A stretch of 64,000 nt of DNA from an uncultured delta proteobacterium. Lineage in GTDB: Bacteria; Desulfobacterota; Binatia; Bin18. Positions 1 to 21,094 of this stretch are shown here, piece by piece (the first letter of the stretch is position 1; every line of letters starts with the position of its first letter). The notes under the pieces are model-generated. The model made no database searches. It saw only the letters and a list, made by a program, of their open reading frames with translations, and was not told the origin of the DNA. Both the position numbers and the translations under genes were made by a program. The stretch is from positions 1 through 64,000 of the forward strand of contig CAVTCR010000033.1 in NCBI GenBank assembly GCA_963733195.1, written 5' to 3'.

Positions 1-592
1 CAACGCCGAGGAAGGCGCGCTCATTCGCTGCCATTGTCTGGCCCATGGGCGGCGCAAGTTCAGTGAATTGGATGAGGCCTTTCCCGCGGAGAGTACCGTG
101 GTAGTCAACACCCTCAAGGACGTGTTCGACCATGAGAGTAACCCGCGTCGAACAAATGACGGCGCCGGAACGCTTAGCCTATCACCAGCGGAACAGTGGG
201 CCGATCATGAAACAGCTCAAGCGGTGGCTCGACGGCAAACGACGAACGGCTCGTGGAGCCCAATAGTAGTTTGGCAAAGCGATCGCTTACATGGTGGAAC
301 ATTGGGAAGCCCTCACGCGGTTTTTGCACAAGCGGACGCGCCTATTGATAACAACCTTGCCGAGCGCGCATTAAAACTGGCCATTCGCCAGCGCAAGAAC
401 TCCTTGTTCTATGCCACCGAGCATAGTGCGTACATCGCCAGTATCCTCACCAGTGTGATTGCCACCTGTGGGCAGGCGGGGTCAACGCCTTGGACTATCT
501 GGTGGCGGTGCAGGAACACCGCCAGGAGGTGTTTGCCAATCCCAGTGCCTGGTTACCGTGGAGTTACCAGGCGGCCCTCGTGCCCGTCGTAA
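1..592 (+). CDS. tnpC: IS66 transposase TnpC, C-terminal part (frameshifted)
   Basis: Motif APIDNNLAERALKLAIRQRKNSLFY...ASILTSVIATC typical of the IS66 DDE transposase C-terminus. Confidence 0.85.
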   Translation, partial: NAEEGALIRCHCLAHGRRKFSELDEAFPAESTVVVNTLKDVFDHESNPRRTNDGAGTLSLSPAEQWADHETAQAVARRQTTNGSWSPIVVWQSDRLHGGTLGSPHAVFAQADAPIDNNLAERALKLAIRQRKNSLFYATEHSAYIASILTSVIATCGQAGSTPWTIWWRCRNTARRCLPIPVPGYRGVTRRPSCPS

Positions 593-939
593 CGCACGGG
601 CCGCCAGTCGGGGGCGAGTTGTGCGCGGTCGGGATGGCCGTTGCCTAAGAGGACGGTTAGCTCCCAGGCCGAGAGCGTCACACTCGGTGTGGTGGCGGTC
701 GGCCACCAGGAAAAATGCCCGTGGGACAGACGTTTCGTGCACAGCCAAAAGCCCTGGCCATCGTACGCCAAGAGTTTCAGCGTCGTGCCCGTGCGGTTGC
801 GAAACACATAGACCGTGCCGCCCAAGGGATTCTCGTGTAGGGGCTGGCGACAGAGCGCGGCGAGCCCATCGATGCCTTTCCGGAAGTCGACGGGCTGCAC
901 GGCCAGAAAGATGCGACTCTGGGGCGTAAGTTGGAGCAT
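553..939 (-). CDS. tnpB: IS66 accessory protein TnpB (Orf2)
   Basis: PVDFRKGIDGLAALC...VFRNR...LKLLAYDGQGFWLCTKRLSHGHFSWWP signature. Confidence 0.92.
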   Translation of the reverse strand: MLQLTPQSRIFLAVQPVDFRKGIDGLAALCRQPLHENPLGGTVYVFRNRTGTTLKLLAYDGQGFWLCTKRLSHGHFSWWPTATTPSVTLSAWELTVLLGNGHPDRAQLAPDWRPVRYDGHEGRLVTPR

Positions 940-1340
940 TAGTGGGAGTCCAGGAAGGTTTGCAGCAAGGGGACGAGCACGGGAGCGGCATCACTGTACA
1001 TGATACGTAAGCGTACCCCATCGGAGCGCTGGATCTCTACTTCCGTCGCAGGCGTCCGCCAAGCTGCCGCGACTTCGACAAAGTGCGGAACCTGGGCAGG
1101 CGGAAGGGGCGCGGCCTGCCATTCAAGGCCGCGCGCCGCTTCTTGAGCGCATGGGGCGTCAGTCCCAGTTGGTGGGCGACCCGCGTCACCGACAAGGTGG
1201 CCGTGAGCGCAACCGCCTGCGCCCATAACTCCTGCGGAATGCGTCCACGCGGGGTACGCCGGCTTTGCCGCCACTGCGCAAAGTGGTGGGTTAAGTGCGT
1301 CAGGGCCTCTTCGCGCCTGGGCCGGTGATAACGGCTGCAT
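939..1340 (-). CDS. tnpA: IS66 TnpA-like HTH protein (frameshifted)
   Basis: Split frames give ..FAQWRQSRRTPRGRIPQELWAQAVAL..VAHQLGL.. and FVEV..EVEIQRSDGVRLRI; homologous to 32907-33308. Confidence 0.75.
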   Translation of the reverse strand: MQPLSPAQARRGPDALNPPLCAVAAKPAYPAWTHSAGVMGAGGCAHGHLVGDAGRPPTGTDAPCAQEAARGLEWQAAPLPPAQVPHFVEVAAAWRTPATEVEIQRSDGVRLRIMYSDAAPVLVPLLQTFLDSH

Positions 1341-1549
1341 ACTAACTCTCCCGTGAAGAACTTGCGGGAGCGACTATAGATGCCCGCGCGCTCCTCTGTC
1401 ACGCAGCTTCGCCGGACGATGCTCGGTCCCCCGTCGCAACGAAGGACGAAAACGCACGGAGAGAAACCGCTGTCACTCGAGTGTAGGCAGTACGATACGG
1501 TTGAGGGACCTTCAGTAAGGGAGGTCAAGCGTGCCTGCCGGAAAGACAC

Positions 1550-1662
1550 AGAGCAACTAATTTTTTGTCGAAGCATTCCTTACACAGCTCAGCATTTTGC
1601 CAACGTAAGAATGAGATTTCATAGCTTTTCCCACACCCTTTGCAGGTGACTGGAGATTTCAT
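1550..1662 (-). pseudogene. First cassette ORF of integron A, 5' part (CxxC...CxxC small protein), interrupted by IS66
   Basis: GGAG RBS + ATG at 1662 about 20 bp after the reconstructed GTTAGGC site; MKSPVTCKGCGKSYEISFLRWQNAELCKECFDKKLVA runs into the IS66 IR. Confidence 0.55.
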
Positions 1663-1710
1663 TTGTTTACTCCCACCATAGCCTGCTATGAAAATGCCCC
1701 GGCAATCGTC

Positions 1711-2957
1711 CTACGCGGCTTGTCCGACTTCTTCAAGTGTGACCTTCACTCCGAGTGCTTCCAGCTGCTTCACTAAGCGTTGCCGTTGCTACTCGACCTG
1801 GTGCTGCGTCACGTACGCACTGCCTAAGTCTGTGTAGCCCACGCGTCGACGGAGCAGATGATAGACCACCCGTAACATACCATGCGCCACCGCGACAAGC
1901 GCTTTCTTCTTGCCCATCCGTTTCACCAGTCGATAATACTTGGCGGCCAGAAACGTCCCCTTCGCCCGCGTCGCGGCCCACGCCGCTTCAACCAGGGCGG
2001 TGCGCGATTACATGCGCTCCTTCTCGTCATATTTTTGCAACCGCTTGCGCTTGCCCGCCGACTCATGGTTGCCTGGACACAGTCCCGCCCAACTCGCCAG
2101 ATGTTCGGCGGAGGGAAACCGCGCCATATCGACCCCAATCTCAGAGACAATCGTGTGCGCGACGTGTTCGCCGATCCCCGGCATACTATCGAGCAACCCC
2201 ACGGCCTCCTGCACGAAAGGGTCGGGGCAGTGCTTAGCGACTTTCCTCCCCAATCCGGATCTCTACGCGTTGTATGGCAGCATGGATTCCCGCGACCCCG
2301 CGCGAGTAATTCGCCCAGCACCCAACGTTGGACTTGCGTCAACCGCCCGACTGACGCGTGGCGGAGGGCGTCCTTTTTGTTCTTCAGTTTCCCTTGGGCC
2401 AGCTCGGCCAACCTCCGCGCATCCTGCTCGCCTTCTGCTAACGCCTGCAGCATCAATCGCCCGCTCAGTCCCGACACGTCGCTGGCCACTTGCCCCAACT
2501 TGATGTTCCCACTCTCCAGGAGTTTCTGGAGCCGATTGGCGACGGCGGTGTGTTCACGCAGCAGTGTCTGCCGGTACCGCGTTAACTCGCGCAACTCCCG
2601 ACTCTCGCGCGGCGGAATAAAACTGGCCCGCAATAATCCATGCCGCAACAAATCCACCAACCACTCGCGCGCGCACGTCCGTTTTGCGCCCCGGCACTGC
2701 TTTGATATGTCGCGCGTTGACCAGGATCACTTCGAGTGTTCCCTCCAAATGTTGAACACCGGCTTCCAGTACAGCCCCGTACTTTCGATCGCGACATGCG
2801 TACAGCCCTCGCTGGTTAACCAATCGCCGAGGTGGAGCAACTCCTCCGTCATCGTCGCGAAGGTGCGAATCTCCTTTCGCCCTTTCTTGATCACACACGC
2901 CACGACTGTCTTGGCATGGACGTCTAGCCCACAACAGCATTCGTAGACGACTTCCAT
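1711..2957 (-). CDS. IS110 family transposase (multiple frameshifts)
   Basis: MEVVYECCCGLDVHAKTVVAC, AIESTGLYWKP, LLDSMPGIG..AHTIVSEIG.DMARFPSAEHLASWAGLCPGNHESAGK; C-terminus VTLEEVGQAA* at 1711. Confidence 0.92.
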
Positions 2958-3195
2958 CTTGGGCTCCTTTCGCCTTGGCGGGGAGAACCTCAGGCAAGAA
3001 AGAGTCTGCTATCCGTGCTGCCCCGTGACGGGCACAACAATGCGTGGTGCCTCAGGAGGCTCTCGGGTCCGGCTAACTTACGGGCTAGGTGGACGAAGGC
3101 TCTCGACCTCATCCGCACCAAAGACGGCGACTACTCTATCGCTCGCAGGCCTTCTTTTCATCCTGCGTGGTGTCGCCACGCAACATGTTTCGGCT
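2958..3195 (-). ncRNA. Putative IS110 bridge RNA region
   Basis: Non-coding region upstream of the transposase with hairpins and short matches to target (AGTTAG at 3073-3078, AGCCT at 3057-3061) and donor end (ATAGCAG at 3006-3012). Confidence 0.65.
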
Positions 3196-3200
3196 AACTA

Positions 3201-4805
3201 GAGCGAGTCGCAGAACTCAGAAAAGGATCAAGCTCGCCTTTTGCCTCTTGCTGGGTCCTTGTTTCCAACCCTCGCTTGCTCTCCGTCGCCCTAGACAACT
3301 GCGGTTGTCATCGTCCTGTCTTTCTCTACGATGTCTCTCATCAGATTGACCAAATTCATACAGACCATCGCACGCTGCCCGGCTGCTCGCGGGCTCTCGT
3401 TGCTGCGCTGTCTGCCCCCTCTGAATTCGTATTTGCTGCTCTTGAGGGTCCCGATGCTCCCCTCGGTCTGCCCGCGTTGGCTGCCAACCTCTTTCTGGTC
3501 TTCCTCGGCAACCGACCAGGGGGCTTTGCCGGCGGGCTGGATGCCGACCTTCTTGACCCCAGCCTTTTGCAGCTTCTCCACGGTCTGCGCGCAACTCCCG
3601 CCGCGGTCGTCGACTGCCATCTCCGGGCTGGCCTGCTCCCCAAACACCTCTCGATAATTCTGCAAGGCTGCGAGCGGCATCTTTCTCTCGTCGACACGCG
3701 CGTCCACGACTTTGCCAAAAATATACCCCCCGGGATCCGGTTGAGCAACCACTTCAGCCCGAACGCCACTTTCTTTCCTGCACTCTTCTTCACTATGGAC
3801 CGGGCTTGGGTGATCCCGGGGTGCAAGATCTTGTGGCGGGCGACTTTGCCAGTCTTCATCCACTGCTCGATCTGCGGGATTAACACCCCACTGACTTCTC
3901 CCATCTGCTGCAACTTTGCTACCGCTGCGTGGGCCACCTTGGTGCTTGCCACCCCAACTTGTTTGATCACCTGTCGGCTGCTGGTGATGAGTTGCTTGCT
4001 GTGACTGAGGATCTTCTTCAGCGCCTGATCTTTTGCGTGCTTGGTCTTGGCAAACAAATGGTAGTCTTTGACCCGGCCGAAAACCTCCTTGGCTTTCTCG
4101 ATGGCGGCTTGAGCGTGTTGGTAGCCGCGGTTTTTCAACTTCACGGCCGCTCGGTAAACCCGTTGGGCAATACCGCGCAGGATGCCGGCCTCATGCGGGT
4201 AGCCGATCTGTGGCTCCTGTACCGTGGTGTCGGCGGACAAGAGCTGGGGCTTGCCAAACCCTAACCGCACGGCTTCGGTCACTACCAGATGATTGATCTG
4301 TTGCCAGCCCGCCGTGCCTAAGGCAGCTTGTGCGCGGGCGATATTCGAATGATCGCGCAGATGCGGCAGCGGATTTCTGTAAGGTCCAAAAACACGCGCG
4401 CCACCACGTTCTCTGCGCTGTATTCTTCCATCTGCCGCGCCGAGAGGGCTTTGACCGCCATCAAGACCAACAAGGGGACATACAAAGCGACCCGCCAGGG
4501 CAGGCCGGGTATGCCGTCCACGTTTTTTCCTACCGCCGCCGTGACGGACCATCACCGCTTGAAGGGCCGGCCAATCGAGCGCGCGCTTGAGCTGCAGCAA
4601 CGGATGGGTGTCCGCGACAAAAAGCGAGACCAAATGAGGGGGCAACTCTGGCACGGCCCTGGGTTCGGGCGTACAATGCGCAGCGGTGCTCATGGTATGC
4701 TCCTGGAGTATGGATTTGATTGATCACATCCAAGTTCATACCTGTAGCACAGGAGCTATTCAACCTCAGAGCTGGTTGTATAGCTCCTCATTCTGCGACT
4801 CGCTC
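3201..4805 (-). mobile_element. IS5-like insertion sequence
   Basis: Perfect 15-bp terminal IR GAGCGAGTCGCAGAA (3201-3215 / 4791-4805); 6-bp TSD TAACTA (3195-3200, 4806-4811). Confidence 0.88.
3291..4693 (-). CDS. DDE transposase, IS5-like (frameshifted)
   Basis: HPLLQLKRALDW, RDHSNIAR, SADTTVQE, KKVAFGLKW, AVDDRG, RGQTEGSIGTLK motifs across frames. Confidence 0.8.
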
Positions 4806-4945
4806 TAACTAGTGATGGGCCGCGTATAGAGGATCTACCAATAGATGGAACTCACTATTAGTAGAAACTTCTTTGTATTTGTATAGAGGCCCGGCTTTAT
4901 ACATATAGAATGGGTCTCCCATCTACAGCTTTATACATATAGAAA
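4805..4945 (-). other. Putative attI site of integron A with direct-repeat array
   Basis: CTAACTAGTG core identical to 19764-19773; GCTTTATACATATAGAA x2 (4894-4910, 4928-4944); GTATAGAGG x2 (4824, 4881). Confidence 0.65.
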
Positions 4946-4975
4946 CTCGCTCCCTGTGACATCCATCGACCATCG

Positions 4976-5335
4976 CTAGCAACCGGCCGCTGCCACAATC
5001 CGTTTGCGCAACCCCAAGGCAATCACACGGTCATAGCGTAGTTTCCACACGCCGCGCCGGGCGTCCCACTGTCCACCAGCACTTTTCACCTGCTGGCGGA
5101 TCGTTGCCTCTGGAACTGCGACTCGCACCGCGACAATCTGGTCCGGGGCAGGTTGCGGAGTGGGAGGTGTCCATTGCCCTTCGGCAACCACTAATTCCAC
5201 TGTCTTGTACCGTTTCTGATTTTGGGCGTCGTACCGGTACCGTACACAGACCAAACGATTGCCGTACTCTGCTCGCAACCCCTTAGCACCGTCTTGGTCT
5301 GGATGCAATGTTAATCGGATGCGGGTGTTGTGCAT
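4976..5335 (-). CDS. Small basic hypothetical protein (YGxRLVCVRYRYD motif) directly downstream of intI
   Basis: 119-aa ORF with RBS (AAGGG), 36 bp after the intI stop, co-oriented. Confidence 0.75.
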   Translation of the reverse strand: MHNTRIRLTLHPDQDGAKGLRAEYGNRLVCVRYRYDAQNQKRYKTVELVVAEGQWTPPTPQPAPDQIVAVRVAVPEATIRQQVKSAGGQWDARRGVWKLRYDRVIALGLRKRIVAAAGC

Positions 5336-5559
5336 GGGTCTTTTCCCTTCTTGGGGCGTAGAAACGCGCGCTTATAGGCCATCGGCGGGACTCTGGACAC
5401 CTTGGCCGCCGCGATTGAGGACATGGGTGTAGATCATCGTCGTGCTGACATCGCGATGGCCAAGCAATTCTTGAATCGTGCGAATGTCATACCCGGCTTC
5501 CAATAAATGCGTGGCAAAGGAATGGCGGTACTCATCAGCATACTGCCCATGAAGGGGCG

Positions 5560-5937
5560 ACGGTCACCATTCATTATCATCACCATCCGTTTTATGGAGA
5601 ACACGGCACGTTCATTCGCCGGTTACGACGGTACACGAGCGATCAAGTCGTCATTGAGCTCCGTGATGAAGTGCAGGTAGCACTCCCAAGCTGGATGTTA
5701 GATCCGGTGGCATGCCAACACCTCAGTGATGAACCCCAGCCTCGTCTGGCCATTGCCGCCTTACTGGAATTGCGTCACCTCCTCGATAGTCAGCCCTTGC
5801 TTACAAGTCGCGTGGTCGCTAGCCGAAAGCGAACCGCTCAACAGACAGGAGAGGACCATGCGCGATCGCAGTCATCTACAAGTGCACCAACGCCCCTTAC
5901 CATTCAGCCGTCCAGACCTATGGGAGCAGATACCTGA
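5560..5937 (+). CDS. Small LSR-associated protein (DUF5372/Y4bD-like), start uncertain
   Basis: [13 protein letters not shown]...[12 protein letters not shown]...LLELRHLLD, typical of ORFs upstream of this LSR group. Confidence 0.55.
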
Positions 5938-6037
5938 GACCATTCGCCAACAGTGTCAGGATCTGTGCGTACAATTGTTACAAACTGTTCTTGAGAGTGA
6001 AGAACTCTCTCGGAGGGAATATGAACGAGAAGATTAA
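5858..6037 (+). CDS. Small hypothetical protein overlapping LSR start
   Basis: RBS GAGG + ATG 5858; MRDRSHLQ...[16 protein letters not shown]. Confidence 0.45.
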   Translation: MRDRSHLQVHQRPLPFSRPDLWEQIPETIRQQCQDLCVQLLQTVLESEELSRREYERED

Positions 6038-8104
6038 GCCTGAACATCTCACCCGCGCAGCCTATGTCTATGTCCGGCAATCCAGTGTGCACCAAGTCCG
6101 TCATCATCGTGAGAGTTTGCTGCGGCAGTATGCCTTAGCGGAACGTGCCACAGCAGCTGGGCTTTGCGAAAGTGGTGGTGATCGACGACGATTTAGGGGT
6201 GACGGGAGCCGGGACCCAAGAGCGGCACGGGTTTGGCCGCCTGTTGACGGCGGTGTGTCAAAAAGCAGCGGGGGCAGTCGTCGCGTTAGAGGCGTCTCGC
6301 CTCGCGCGCAACAACCGCGACTGGTATCATCTGATCGATCTGTGTGCGATGACCGAGACCTTGTTGATTGATGATGACGGGATTTACGATCCGCGACTGA
6401 TCAACGATCGGCTCGTGTTAGGCGTGAAAGGCACAATGAGTGAGTTTGAATTAAGTCTGTTGCGGCAACGGGCCCGCGAAGCCTTCGAACAGAAAGTGAG
6501 ACGTGGCTGTGTCCTCTGGCAAGTGCCTATCGGGTTCGTGCGCACGGACGAGGATCAGATTGAGAAAGTGCCAGACCGCCAAGTGCAGCAGGCCGTGCAG
6601 TTGGTGTTCCAGAAGTTTCGGGAGTTAGGGAGTGCCCGCCAGACCATGTTGTGGTTACGCGATGCCCAGATTCGTGTCCCGGCGATTGTGCCCAGCACAG
6701 GCGGTGAGGAGATCGTGTGGCAGTTGCCTGGTGAGAGTCGTATTCACCAAATGTTACGCAATCCCATGTATGCCGGTGCCCTCGCCTATGGCCGCACGAA
6801 GTTCCAGCGCACCCTGATTGACGGACGGCTGCAGCAGACCACCCGCAGCCGCAAAGCGCGGGAGGACTGGTCGGTCTTGCTGCGGGACCATCACGACGGC
6901 TACATCTCCTGGGAGGAGTATTGTAAGAATCAACAAATCCTGGAGGCGAATCTGGCAAGACGAGAGGCGAAAAATACGGGGGCGGCGAAAAGTGGGCCAG
7001 CGTTGCTCTCCGGATTGTTACGCTGCGGGCGGTGTGGCCGGATGCTGTTTGTCGCGTATGGTGGGAATGGAGGCCGCGTCCCACGCTATGGGTGTCACGG
7101 GGGACGCGTGGATCGCGGTTCGGCGGCGTGTTTATCGGTCGGGTAGCCTGCGCGTCGACCAAGCCGTCGTGGAGCAAGTCTTAGCGGCGATTCAACCAGC
7201 TGGGATTCATGCCGCCTTGGCGGCAGAGGCGGAAGTCGGCCGTGAGCAAGAGCAGATTCGCCAGACCCTGACCTTAGCGGTGGAGCGCGCGCGCTACGAA
7301 GCGCAGCGGGCGCAGCGACAGTTTGATGCCGTCGATCCCGACAATCGACTCGTCGCGAGTGAATTGGAAGCGCGGTGGAACCAGGCCTTGGTGAAGGTGG
7401 CGGAAGTCGAGACGCGGTTACACGCTCTCGCTCCTCCTCAACCGCTGAGTCCGACCCAAAAAGAACAGTTATTAATGTTGGGCAATGATCTCTCGTTATT
7501 GTGGCAGCATCCGGCCGCACCGGTGGAACTCAAAAAACGGATTCTGCGCACCGTGCTCGAAGAAATCGTGATCGACCGCGTTGAAGAGCCCGCGCAGGAA
7601 CTCTTGCACCTCCATTGGAAAGGTGGGGTGCACACGGAATTACGCGTGGCACGCAATGGCACCGGCCATCATCGTCGCGTTGCTGACGACAAAGCCATCG
7701 AACTGATCGAAGAGTTGTCCAAAATCTGTACGGCCCAGATGATTGCTCAAGTGCTCAATCGCTTGGGCTATCGAACAGGACAGGGACAGACGTGGCGTGT
7801 CCATCATATATATAATGTCCGGTATGAACGGCGACTGCCCAGTTATCAGAAAAAAGGTGAGTGGTTGACGTTGCAAGAGACCGCCACCGAACTCCAGGTC
7901 AGTGGTACCGTCATTAAACGTCTGCTGAAGGAGGGGATTTTACCTGCCCGCCAAGTCGTTCCGGGTGCGCCCTGGGTCATCGAACGCAAGAATCTCCAGT
8001 TACCCGTGGTCCAAGCGCAGATTCAGGCCGTGCATGCGGGCCGCAAACCGCCACAAATTACCGACAGACAAGCCGAACTTCCGCTACAATACAGCATTCT
8101 CTGA
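6021..8104 (+). CDS. Large serine recombinase (resolvase + recombinase + Zn-ribbon), frameshifted ~6150 and ~7140
   Basis: AYVYVRQSS, IDDDLG, EASRLARN, LLSGLLRCGRCG, VDPDNRLVASELEARWN. Confidence 0.92.
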
Positions 8105-9090
8105 AAGGAGTAGTACTATGTTGAAACGGTCCGCAAGATGTGACGGATTGGCGGGCTTGGTGAGTCCAACTCTTCCGAGCGGCTTCCTGCAGGCGCGTTG
8201 CGGCACGGACTCATGCAGATGATGCCGACGCTGATTCCCGGAGCGTGGATCAACGCTGAGATTGCGAGGCCGGAAACACCCACTGCCAGCCCCATTCTGT
8301 GTCGGCGTTGCGATACTTCCGGTCCAACGCATCTGGGAATGACACGCGACCGAATCCCACTGAAGATCACGTTGGTGAAGCTCGCGTACCCGTACGAGAT
8401 GTGCGGTCAGCGCTGGCTTTGACAACGAGCCGGGAGCATGGTGATGCGATCTTTGTGGCCTTTGCCTTCACGTACAACAATCTGATTGGCGGTGAAGTCA
8501 ACATCTTTGACGCGTAGTCGCAGGCATTCCATCAGACGCAGTCCGGCGCCGTACAGCAGATTGGCGATGAGCCAGAGCACGCCGTCCACCGCACCGAGCA
8601 AGCTTTGCACTTCCTGCTCTGGTGAGCACGGTCGGAAGACGTTGTGGGCGTTTGGCGCGGACGATGATTGTCTAGCCAGCCAGGATTGAGATCAAGCACG
8701 TGCCGGTACAAGAAGACGAGCGCATTGAGCGCCTGGTTTTGCGTGGCCGCGCTGACGTGCTTGTCCATGGCAAGATGTGGTGAGAAACTGCTCGATTTCT
8801 TCCTCGCCCATCTCACGCGGGTGGCGTTTGTTGATGGAAGAAGATAAAGCGTTTGATCCAGTGGATGTAGTGTCTTCCGTTCGCAGACTGTAATGCCGCA
8901 TGCGAATCGCCTCGCGGACTTGGTCGAGTAGTTTCGGTTTCTGCGCTGCGGAAAGAAATCTGGTCTGTGGGCCAGGGAAGGTGGAGGCTGGGGATACATC
9001 CGCGCGGGAACGCGCTGGATGTGACCCCGAGGGTATTCCCGTTGAAGGGCTGGTGCCAGTGATGTCATGAGTGCCCCCTTTTTTGTTGAT

Positions 9091-19761: not shown

Positions 19762-19985
19762 GTCTAACTAGTGGGTTTACTGCCACCTAACCGGCAGTAT
19801 ATCTCGATATTGAGATTCCCCGCCATCCCAAGAAAATCTCTCGCAGTATCCGCTCGGTCCACGCATTTTGTCAAGCCTTTTCTCAGCAGCAAACACTGCC
19901 AGTTTGGCGGTATATCCAGATACCAGCCCGCGGTATATCCCACGTATATCTCACTGGCCGTATATCCCGATATCAGCCCGCAGTC
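19762..19985 (-). other. Putative attI site of integron B with GTATATC repeat array and Pc-like promoter
   Basis: CACTAGTTAGAC (GTTRRRY); GTATATC at 19797, 19910, 19933, 19944, 19960; TTGACA (19869-19874)-N18-GATACT facing the cassettes. Confidence 0.7.
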
Positions 19986-20005
19986 GGTCGCCATCCTTCT
20001 CCGCG

Positions 20006-21094
20006 CTACAGCCGGTCGGCCGGACTCTTTACCCCTCGCCCGCCACGATTCAGCACGTGGGTATACACCATTGTCGTGTTGACATCCTTGTGCCCTAGTA
20101 GTTCCTGCACAGTGCGAATGTCATACCCATCTTCCAGTAAGTGCGTTGCAAACGAATGGCGAAACGTGTGACATCCCGCATGCTTGGCTACTCCAGATTT
20201 TTGACATGCCGTTTTGACCGCTTTCTGGAGCACCGATTCATGCAGATGGTGGCGGCGCAGCTTGCCTGAGCACGGATCGATGGCGAGCTTGGAGGCCGGA
20301 AACACAAACTGCCACCCCCACTCCTGCGGAGCGTTCGGATATTTCTTCTCTAATGCATTTGGTAAGGACGCCCCACCTTGTCCGTGTTCCAGGTCTCGTT
20401 GATAGCGTATTTTCACTCGTTCAAGATGTTGGCGTAGTGGTTCCACCACAGAACTCGGTAACATGGTTACGCGATCCTTGTCACCTTTCCCGGCGCGCAC
20501 GGTAATCTGATTGTGGCCAAAGTCGATCTCTTGTACGCGTAAGCGAAGACATTCCATCAGCCGGAGCCCAGCACCGTAGAGGAGTGTGACCATCACCCAC
20601 TCAACGCCTTCAAGACCATCAACAATGGCACGCACTTCTTGCCGAGTAAGGACCACCGGTAGACGGTGTGGCCTTTTGGCCCGCACCACGCCGTTGATGT
20701 AGCCAACCGGTTGCTCCAACACCGCGCGATAGAGAAACAACAAGGCATTTAAAGCTTGATTTTGTGTCGAGGCGCTTACCTGTGATTCTGTAGCCAGAGC
20801 GGAGAGAAATTGCCCGATCTCGATCTCTCCCATCTCTCGTGGATGACGTTTTCCATGAAAGAAAATGAAGCGTTTGATCCAGTGCATGTACGCTTTTTCA
20901 GTCCGCAGACTATAGTGCCGCGTGCGCATCGCCCCGCGGACTTGGTCAAGGAGCTTGGGCTTGGGCCCTTCTGACGAAGGCGGAGTCAAGTTACCAAACC
21001 GAACTGGGGACGGGGAATAGGGTGATGGGGATGGATTGCGTTGTGCGTGAGACTGCCGCTCGCCTCGAGGCACGACGGACAAGTAGGTAGGCAT
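20006..21094 (-). CDS. intI: Integron integrase B (intact)
   Basis: R-K-HxxR-H-Y catalytic set plus integron patch [20 protein letters not shown]...RRHHLHES. Confidence 0.97.

Follow-up and report, generated by a model that had tools for sequence, protein, structure and literature searches.

Introduction

The locus studied here lies in a stretch of 64,000 nucleotides (the window, by which we mean this whole stretch) from contig CAVTCR010000033.1 of an uncultured bacterium of the Binatia, where a decayed insertion sequence (IS) of the IS110 family interrupts an attI-like integron site; its closest described counterparts are other members of the IS110 superfamily. For IS621, the published account (PMC11208160) gives the rule that the left guides of the bridge RNA read as the top strand, whereas the core plus the right flank appear in reverse complement in the right target guide. 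For ISKpn4 and ISPst6, PMC11187229 describes an RNA derived from the non-coding region (NCR) with short matches to both target strands, the complement of the top strand lying 5' of the bottom-strand match. The integron targeting of the IS1111-attC elements and its seekRNA basis are already in print. To our knowledge, integron targeting within the IS110 superfamily is known only for this group, mostly in clinical class 1 integrons.

We consider it probable that the element in the window is a dead copy of a DEDD-type IS110-family IS whose 5' NCR encodes a guide RNA of the bridge or seek type, and whose lineage occurs in attI-like and attC integron sites. Full-text literature searches, with supplements lying outside them, turned up no IS110 element with an upstream NCR and directed at integron cores or attI, and a term search of 10.64898/2026.08.14.744561 found no mention of integron, attC or attI. 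The supplementary bridge-RNA tables of Durrant might already show the reversed guide order described below.

The IS1111-attC elements (ISPa21, ISKpn4, ISPst6 and ISPa25) share with our element a DEDD transposase of the IS110 superfamily and occurrence at a fixed point in attC, and the IS1111 seekRNAs share its guide order, with the right target guide first. A conserved repeat of 7 bp (ATGAAAA/TTTTCAT, left arm 31 nt from the element end) may correspond to the sub-terminal inverted repeats of 7-17 bp in the IS1111 group. Unlike in IS1111-attC elements, the guide region lies upstream of the transposase gene (tnp), with 237 nt of non-coding DNA 5' and 28 nt 3' of it (L002), which is the layout of the IS110 group and leaves no long right end of the IS1111 kind. 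Further differences are the length of the transposase (412 aa; those of IS1111 are given as 330-350 aa), the occupation of attI-like cores in addition to attC, and the hosts, soil bacteria that carry chromosomal integrons with the integrase gene (intI) pointing toward the cassettes.

The likeness to the IS621 bridge RNA (Durrant 2024; Hiraizumi 2024) comprises an RNA in the left end, a target loop, a donor module and a core dinucleotide covered by the guides. The left guides and the right target guide follow the published IS621 strand rules, and both protein domains are homologous at distant similarity (solved IS621 and ISCro4 enzymes; 8wt6, E 5e-15). The differences are that IS621 has its left target guide 5' and its right one 3', an order reversed here; that it has a right donor guide, of which we found none; that its core is CT and ours AG; and that its handshake guides adjoin the right guides, whereas here 2 donor-matching nt follow the left target guide. 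The seekRNA of ISEc21, another IS110-family element, resembles ours in its upstream NCR and two short target matches and differs in placing the bottom-strand match first and in targeting the inside of IS3-family transposase genes. Group IIC-attC introns are likewise mobile elements that home to attC, according to PMC3001079; they are retroelements with an unrelated mechanism.

The window holds a relic of an IS110-family element

The element was delimited by comparison with an intact sister copy, 87% identical, which is the sole other copy in this genome (G000, 87 contigs) and lies at G000:C24:50449-51960. The left end of the window element begins CCGAAACATG at 3193 and its right end closes ...TTTTCATAGCAG at 1683, and the flanks of the two copies part exactly outside AG|CC... 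and ...CAG|GC (the bar marks the junction). Most relatives also have AG as core dinucleotide; distant ones have AA or AC. The intact copy encodes a 412-aa protein (P0001) with the DEDD_Tnp_IS110 N-terminal domain (PF01548, 110.8 bits) and the Transposase_20 C-terminal domain (PF02371, 88.5 bits) of Pfam; in NCBIfam it matches NF033542, 'IS110 family RNA-guided transposase', with 293.9 bits against a cut-off of 140. Together with AG at both junctions, the lack of terminal inverted repeats and of a target duplication, and the fixed target GTTAG|GC, found in both copies of this genome and in a copy from another genome (L121), these features are those of the IS110 family, and the Pfam and NCBIfam matches and the 237-nt upstream NCR bear out the preliminary description of an IS110-type element with a long 5' non-coding region.

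Judged from its sequence, the window copy is a relic that cannot be active, its gene and its RNA both being decayed. Relative to the intact gene, tnp carries deletions of 1 and 2 nt, insertions of 1, 4 and 6 nt, and in-frame TGA, TAA and TAG codons. We conclude that the RNA decayed along with the gene because the 5' strand of hairpin H2 (see below) is mutated, reading TCGTCC in the window copy against TGGTGC in the intact one.

The preliminary description had also proposed that removal of this element and of a second IS beside it restores a GTTRRRY site. The sequence confirms this: cutting out the IS110 (3193-1683) together with the second IS rebuilds ...CACTAGTTAG|GCTATGG, which holds GTTAGGC. 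The second IS is flanked by an 8-bp duplication, CTAACTAG, at 3194-3201 and 4805-4812, and contains an open reading frame (ORF) of 445 aa at 3356-4693 that has no Pfam match. Its earlier label, IS5, was not confirmed, the NCBIfam scores being sub-threshold (ISNCY 59 bits, cut-off 325; IS5 45 bits, cut-off 275). The copy on C24 sits at the end of an attI-like module, at AAAGTTAG|GCC, or in fuller form TTAAAGTTAG|GCCTACT, and both copies of this genome rebuild AGTTAGGC in unrelated flanks.

Three guide segments covary with target flanks and element ends

Relatives were found in 19 of 401 sampled genomes of the phylum, at 80 metagenome loci (55-94% protein identity) and at 79 species-genome loci; sequencing runs that shared words with the element each held fewer than 1/3 of the sampled words. 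We aligned 80 upstream regions and dropped three that were not alignable (L064, L076 and L110), leaving 77, and elements with poor end calls were excluded from the flank tests. As a cross-lineage control, the guides of other lineages were compared with an element's own flank or end. The replication set comprised 33 of 65 new loci, namely those showing both landmarks of the family. The alignment gave a common layout: ...GAGGTC-GA-(variable)-TGGTGC-NNN-AGCCCG-(11 nt)-GACC-N-GAGARCC-...-GGCACC-...-TGTTGC-hairpin-AGCACG-(8 nt)-ACTC...

The 11-nt block of this layout consists of six flank bases, two core bases and the element's own first bases. In our element AAGTTAG equals the left flank plus core, and the 2 nt that follow are those with which its own left end begins. 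The 8-nt left target guide matched the element's own left-end region at 7 or more of 8 positions in 53 of 77 elements, compared with 3.1% of 2720 cross-lineage trials, and this was replicated in 25 of 33 new loci against 1.9%. The 8-nt block, which equals the last bases of the element, behaved in the same way: the left donor guide matched its own end at 8/8 in 37 of 60 elements (0.27% of 2202 cross-lineage trials), and in 21 of 30 new loci against 0.5%. Where copies of one element occur at different places (L035-37, L039-47, L123-125), the matching flank bases belong to the target and not to the element; the agreement of the 2 bases past the core with the first two of the left end is partly circular, as the same bases helped to set the border. 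The matches are short and weak in any one copy, and exceed chance because they hold across the family.

These results uphold the positions proposed before for the left target guide (AAGTTAG) and the left donor guide (ATAGCAG), which covary with flank and end across 77 plus 33 relatives. All the motifs from which the proposal was built are indeed present on the minus strand, namely AGTTAG at 3078-3073, AGCCT at 3061-3057, and ATAGCAG at 3012-3006 and again, at the element's end, at 1689-1683. The right target guide had to be moved. The variable bases 5' of TGGTG complement the core and right flank over a mean contiguous length of 3.82 nt, compared with 2.43 +/- 0.11 in 2000 permutations, and this column came out top in a blind profile scan. 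Complementarity reached 6 nt or more in 12 of 61 elements (null mean 1.0, maximum 5), and the new loci gave 3.04 against 2.16 +/- 0.13; kinship among elements inflates these permutation tests. Examples are L041 (GAGGCCT, flank GCCTCC), L046 (GAGCCCT, flank GGCTCC) and L079 (9 nt), and the long matches span separate lineages (L036, L041, L045, L046, L048, L049, L065, L066, L079 and L095). The segment reads AGCCT in the window copy and GCCT in the intact copy, and therefore the encoded target is still AAGTTAG|GC(T).

The AGCCT at 3061-3057, previously taken for this guide, was rejected: it belongs to the conserved GAGARCC motif, which relatives keep while having other right flanks, and lies outside the columns complementary to the right flank. 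The covarying guide at 3101-3097 lies 5' of the left target guide, on the other side of hairpin H2, so that the order of guides, previously taken for the one expected of IS110 bridge RNAs, is the reverse of that in IS621.

The preliminary description had noted no clear right donor guide, and our searches agree. An exhaustive search found a complement of at least 6 nt to the core plus left end in 1 of 74 elements, a column profile scan gave nothing, and none was found 5' of H4, past the left donor guide or in the GGTC..GGCG region.

Among more distant relatives, L007-L010, L013, L016 and similar elements of the same phylum (40-49% identity) have a 5' region of about 140 nt and a 3' region of 180-240 nt, which is IS1111-like. 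The guide region may, from these lengths, have shifted between the element ends within the clade that holds them.

A predicted RNA fold places both target guides in one internal loop

Folding each of the two non-coding regions as a single sequence was not informative (z +1.25 and -1.65 compared with shuffles). RNAalifold gave part of the structure, and the helices were derived from the alignment and their pairs counted. H1, H2 and H4 were paired in 96-99% of cells, compared with 1-74% when the partner was slid, and 8 of 14 pairs showed double-sided changes. Between them H1 and H2 delimit an internal loop, whose 5' side carries the right target guide and whose 3' side carries the left one. The guides thus lie in a loop rather than in a stem, as expected for target recognition under the preliminary description.

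Taken together, these observations suggest how the intact form on C24 would work. One internal loop, closed by H1 (GGTC/GACC) and capped by H2, would present both target guides. The 5' right target guide (..GCCT) would pair with the top strand of AG|GC, and the two guides together would specify AAGTTAG|GC, a target that contains the integron core GTTAGGC. A second module, H4 followed by ATAGCAG, matches the element's own right end and would serve as left donor guide. Recombination at the AG core would then place the element 4 nt past the integrase crossover (G|TT), on its 3' side. The occurrence of the lineage in integron sites could stem from an additional preference for such targets or from insertions surviving better in them. 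We infer transcription of the guide RNA, its binding by the protein and the chemistry by homology to IS621 and ISEc21. The inverted-repeat arm ATGAAAA could possibly be read as a -35 box, a conserved hexamer, TAnnnT, lying 17 nt further downstream.

Insertion sites in this genome and in relatives

Integrons of this genome have an 'inverted' layout, illustrated by an intact integron in the window whose own attI lies downstream of intI on the same strand (GATATAC repeats, then GTTAGGT), with an attC-like site further downstream. The attI-like modules likewise lie downstream of intI remnants and of a conserved gene, orf119, and end in GTT-type cores. Contig C1 carries an intI remnant, orf119 and a homologous module with the unoccupied core ...AATTAAAGTTGGAC; this module shares 81% identity with the sequence flanking the C24 copy on the left.

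The modules form a family of about 135 nt with at least 9 copies at 73-96% identity (C24:50318-50454, C68, C28, C19, C66, C63, C1, C39 and C16). Each copy ends AAAGTT.., followed by different sequence. They contain a palindrome, CTATATGTAGCC..GGCTACATATAG, and GGCTA..GTAG repeats, and most have no nearby intI; the module core at C66 is followed downstream by a gene for a tyrosine recombinase. Homologs of orf119 occur on C1 (40340-40630), C32 (16101-16240), C47, C41, C19 and in L121 (291-713). The gene encodes about 119-140 aa. At several loci, and also in another genome, it stands between the 3' end of intI, or its remnant, and an attI-like module, and it may belong to this integron platform as a component so far overlooked.

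L121 is a contig of another genome with a 94%-identical transposase. It reads orf119, an empty attI-like core (CACTAAGTTAGGT), one gene of 532 aa, and then a 99-nt attC (ACCTAAC...GTTAGGC, free energy dG -31.6) that holds the IS at GTTAG|GC once the IS and an extra CAG are removed; with the CAG discounted, the right guide matches 5 nt of the attC flank. In all, 3 of 3 context-resolved insertions of the lineage with 94-100% identity lie in integron sites in one register and orientation, two of them attI-like and one attC, and copies other than the window's, at C24 and L121, were thus found at GTTAG|GC as predicted. Elsewhere in G000, 93 other AGTTAGGC sites and 1236 AGTTAG sites are unoccupied. 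In two soil runs there are contigs on which an identical left end is preceded by (A)AGTTAG and, before that, by another flank.

An attC of the form RYYYAAC...GTTRRRY, an imperfect palindrome of about 60-140 nt, was seen at the junction of L121 alone and at none of 8 other sites tested. The strict attC detector missed attC sites visible by eye and a looser one still found few, so that a finding of 'no attC' near relatives is weak. A tblastn search with intact IntI and orf119 against the loci of all relatives found nothing adjoining, apart from orf119 in L121 and a weak tyrosine recombinase match in each of L065 and L126.

Several further features of the junctions were recorded. An extra CAG stands between the ..GCAG end and the guide-predicted flank at the right junctions of L034, L038, L047 and L121, and the left junction of L035 has 4 extra nt (tandem AGCG); from their sequence, these are perhaps 3-4-nt junction duplications arising from exchange at an alternative AG. 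Many family members, L022 (G349:C56), L056, L057, L063, L068, L085, L089, L091 and L106, are aimed at the end of another family member. Their signature, a left flank ..TTTTCxxxxxAG or a right flank like a left end, leads to tandem arrays, and L022 also has four short right-end/left-end junction remnants without a gene. Metagenome elements L039-L042, L044, L046 and L047 (~76% identity) form one lineage that is always found at ..CCTAACnCCTATCAG|GCCTCCGGTGTCAAG.., where a conserved stretch of over 170 nt begins that is possibly the end of another mobile element.

Weighing the alternatives

Family-wide covariation of three guides, compensated helices and one insertion register in three integron sites are what the alignments and junctions show directly. 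The least probable way of accounting for them is that the guide-like matches arose by chance and that the transposase finds its site through protein-DNA contacts alone. The matches in a single copy are indeed short, 5-7 nt, and single-sequence folds are no better than shuffles; the covariation of the three guide blocks with flanks and ends was replicated out of sample, the helices change in a compensatory manner and the transposase is homologous to experimentally RNA-guided enzymes, and we regard this explanation as extremely improbable. It is also very improbable that the two copies of this genome are not independent, one insertion having been copied along with an ancestral duplication of module or platform. 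The attI-like module is a repeat family here, as such a duplication would have it, yet the window and C24 modules barely align, the 25 nt beside the insertion differ, the right flanks of the two copies are different genes, and the third site, in L121, is an attC and so of another kind, and belongs to another genome.

More weight belongs to the view that the element is RNA-guided and has no integron specificity: it would recognise some 6-8 bp, (A)AGTTAG with or without GC, and insertions into cassette arrays, being harmless, would persist while others were purged. The left flank dominates the natural sites, and in 41 of 61 elements fewer than 5 contiguous nt of the right flank match the guide. 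Relatives with the same left guide occur in non-integron contexts (three copies in one genome, L123-125, and L035-L037), and the 93 free AGTTAGGC sites were available in G000. Set against this, every context-resolved insertion of the closest lineage lies in an att core, and register and orientation are the same each time; of about 1240 AGTTAG sites in G000 no more than 5 fall in the modules, yet both copies are there; and the encoded 9 bp contain the one motif common to attI and attC. On balance we think this view unlikely, and keep to an IS110-family element with a guide RNA whose lineage occurs in integron sites.

A number of observations weigh against that preferred reading. The guide RNA is predicted here from DNA sequence: an Rfam E-value search of window positions 1-8000 gave no match, a sigma-70 consensus scan of the intact copy found no promoter, and among the sequencing runs listed as sharing words with the element none is of RNA. 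The guide order is opposite to that of the experimentally studied IS110-group RNAs (IS621 and ISEc21), donor recognition is half explained, as no right donor guide was found, and the right-flank match in both copies of this genome is short, 2-3 nt beyond the core. The attC reading of L121 requires the extra CAG at its right junction to be counted with the element, and there the attI-like core (TAAGTTAG|GT), which matches the left flank better, is empty while the attC (GCGTTAG|GC) was used. Loci L033-L037 and L123-125 (69-79% identity) have the same left guide and sit at GTTAGCG, GTTAGGG and similar sites, and in their flanks, many of them short, no intI, orf119 or junction attC was detectable. 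We infer the attI role of the modules, and every intI beside them is broken; attC-like sites were found behind 3 of 9 modules, compared with 3 hits in 80 random 8-kb pieces, by a crude detector.

The claim that the element uses RNA guides to parasitise integron attI and attC sites is accordingly supported for the closest lineage, with three sites in the same register, and not for relatives at 69-79% identity, in whose flanks no integron context was detectable. The central idea of the preliminary description survives in amended form: the right target guide has another position, the guides follow the opposite order, and the window copy is a relic. A bolder proposal, which we hold to be doubtful, is that a branch of IS110 proper independently evolved a duplex-reading guide for the attI/attC motif, that the integrase could mobilise the IS and the next cassette as a composite cassette, an RNA-guided transposon thus riding on the recombination system of the integron, and that a design with swapped guides and without a right donor guide is workable. 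Insertion would leave the left junction G|TTAGCC, and the same core variant occurs naturally at two unoccupied modules (C28 and C19).

Coordinates and neighbouring features

The features are collected in Table 1. Decayed mobile elements are frequent in the window. One, with a serine recombinase, separates the C-terminal piece of intI from its N-terminal remnants: at 5560-8400, large serine recombinase ORFs (6139-7146 and 6818-8104), apparently frameshifted and with a weak XisF-type match, interrupt intI. After the first cassette, positions 1-1500, up to the contig start, hold a putative IS66-like three-gene element with frameshifts, so labelled from its translation.

Table 1. Positions in the window of the IS110-family element, its predicted RNA segments and neighbouring features
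Feature	Position	Strand	Observation
IS110-family element, decayed copy	1683..3193	minus	borders from comparison with the 87%-identical intact copy
Core dinucleotide AG, left junction	3194..3195	minus	same AG closes the element at 1684-1683
Transposase pseudogene	1711..2957	minus	compared with the intact 412-aa gene
Sub-terminal inverted repeat ATGAAAA	3155..3161	minus	partner TTTTCAT at 1694-1688; kept in the family alignment
Helix H1, GGTC/GACC	5' strand 3105..3108, 3' strand 3069-3066	minus	273/276 cells paired; 2/4 pairs with double-sided changes
Right target guide AGCCT (putative)	3097..3101	minus	reverse complement of core + right flank AGGCT; just 5' of H2
Hairpin H2 (TGG-T-GC ... GC-CCG), between the target guides	3081..3096	minus	329/343 cells paired; 3/5 pairs with double-sided changes
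Left target guide block TAAGTTAG + CC (putative)	3071..3080	minus	covariation with flank
AGCCT, 'right target guide' of the preliminary description	3057..3061	minus	in the conserved GAGARCC motif 3' of H1
Hairpin H4 (TGT-T-GY ... GC-ACG), directly 5' of the left donor guide	3014..3039	minus	343/345 cells paired; 3/5 pairs with double-sided changes
Left donor guide GATAGCAG (putative)	3006..3013	minus	last 7 nt equal the right end 1689-1683; then conserved ACTC
Second IS	3202..4804	minus	inserted exactly at the IS110 left junction
attI-like module	4813..4975	minus	repeated CTATATGTA/CTCTATAC motifs and GTTTCTACTAATAG; closes in the rebuilt core CACTAG|TTAGGC
orf119, conserved gene	4976..5335	minus	between intI remnant and attI-like module; no Pfam or NCBIfam match
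Integron integrase, C-terminal fragment	5372..5563	minus	N-terminal remnants ~8105-9036
First ORF past the core, small Cys-rich protein, putative first cassette gene	1525..1662	minus	
Intact integron integrase	20006-21094 (with attI 19790..21094)	minus	477 bits against a cut-off of 265

Implications

If the preferred reading is true, the same integron niche has been reached by the other branch of the family, in chromosomal integrons of soil bacteria and at attI-like as well as attC sites, as if a guide RNA had been reprogrammed convergently to read the universal integron core. For the engineering of bridge recombinases, the family would offer a natural design with the right target guide 5', a 2-nt donor-matching extension and no recognisable right donor guide. 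For the host, an IS at the attI core splits the platform from its cassettes, and may thereby freeze or redirect cassette capture.

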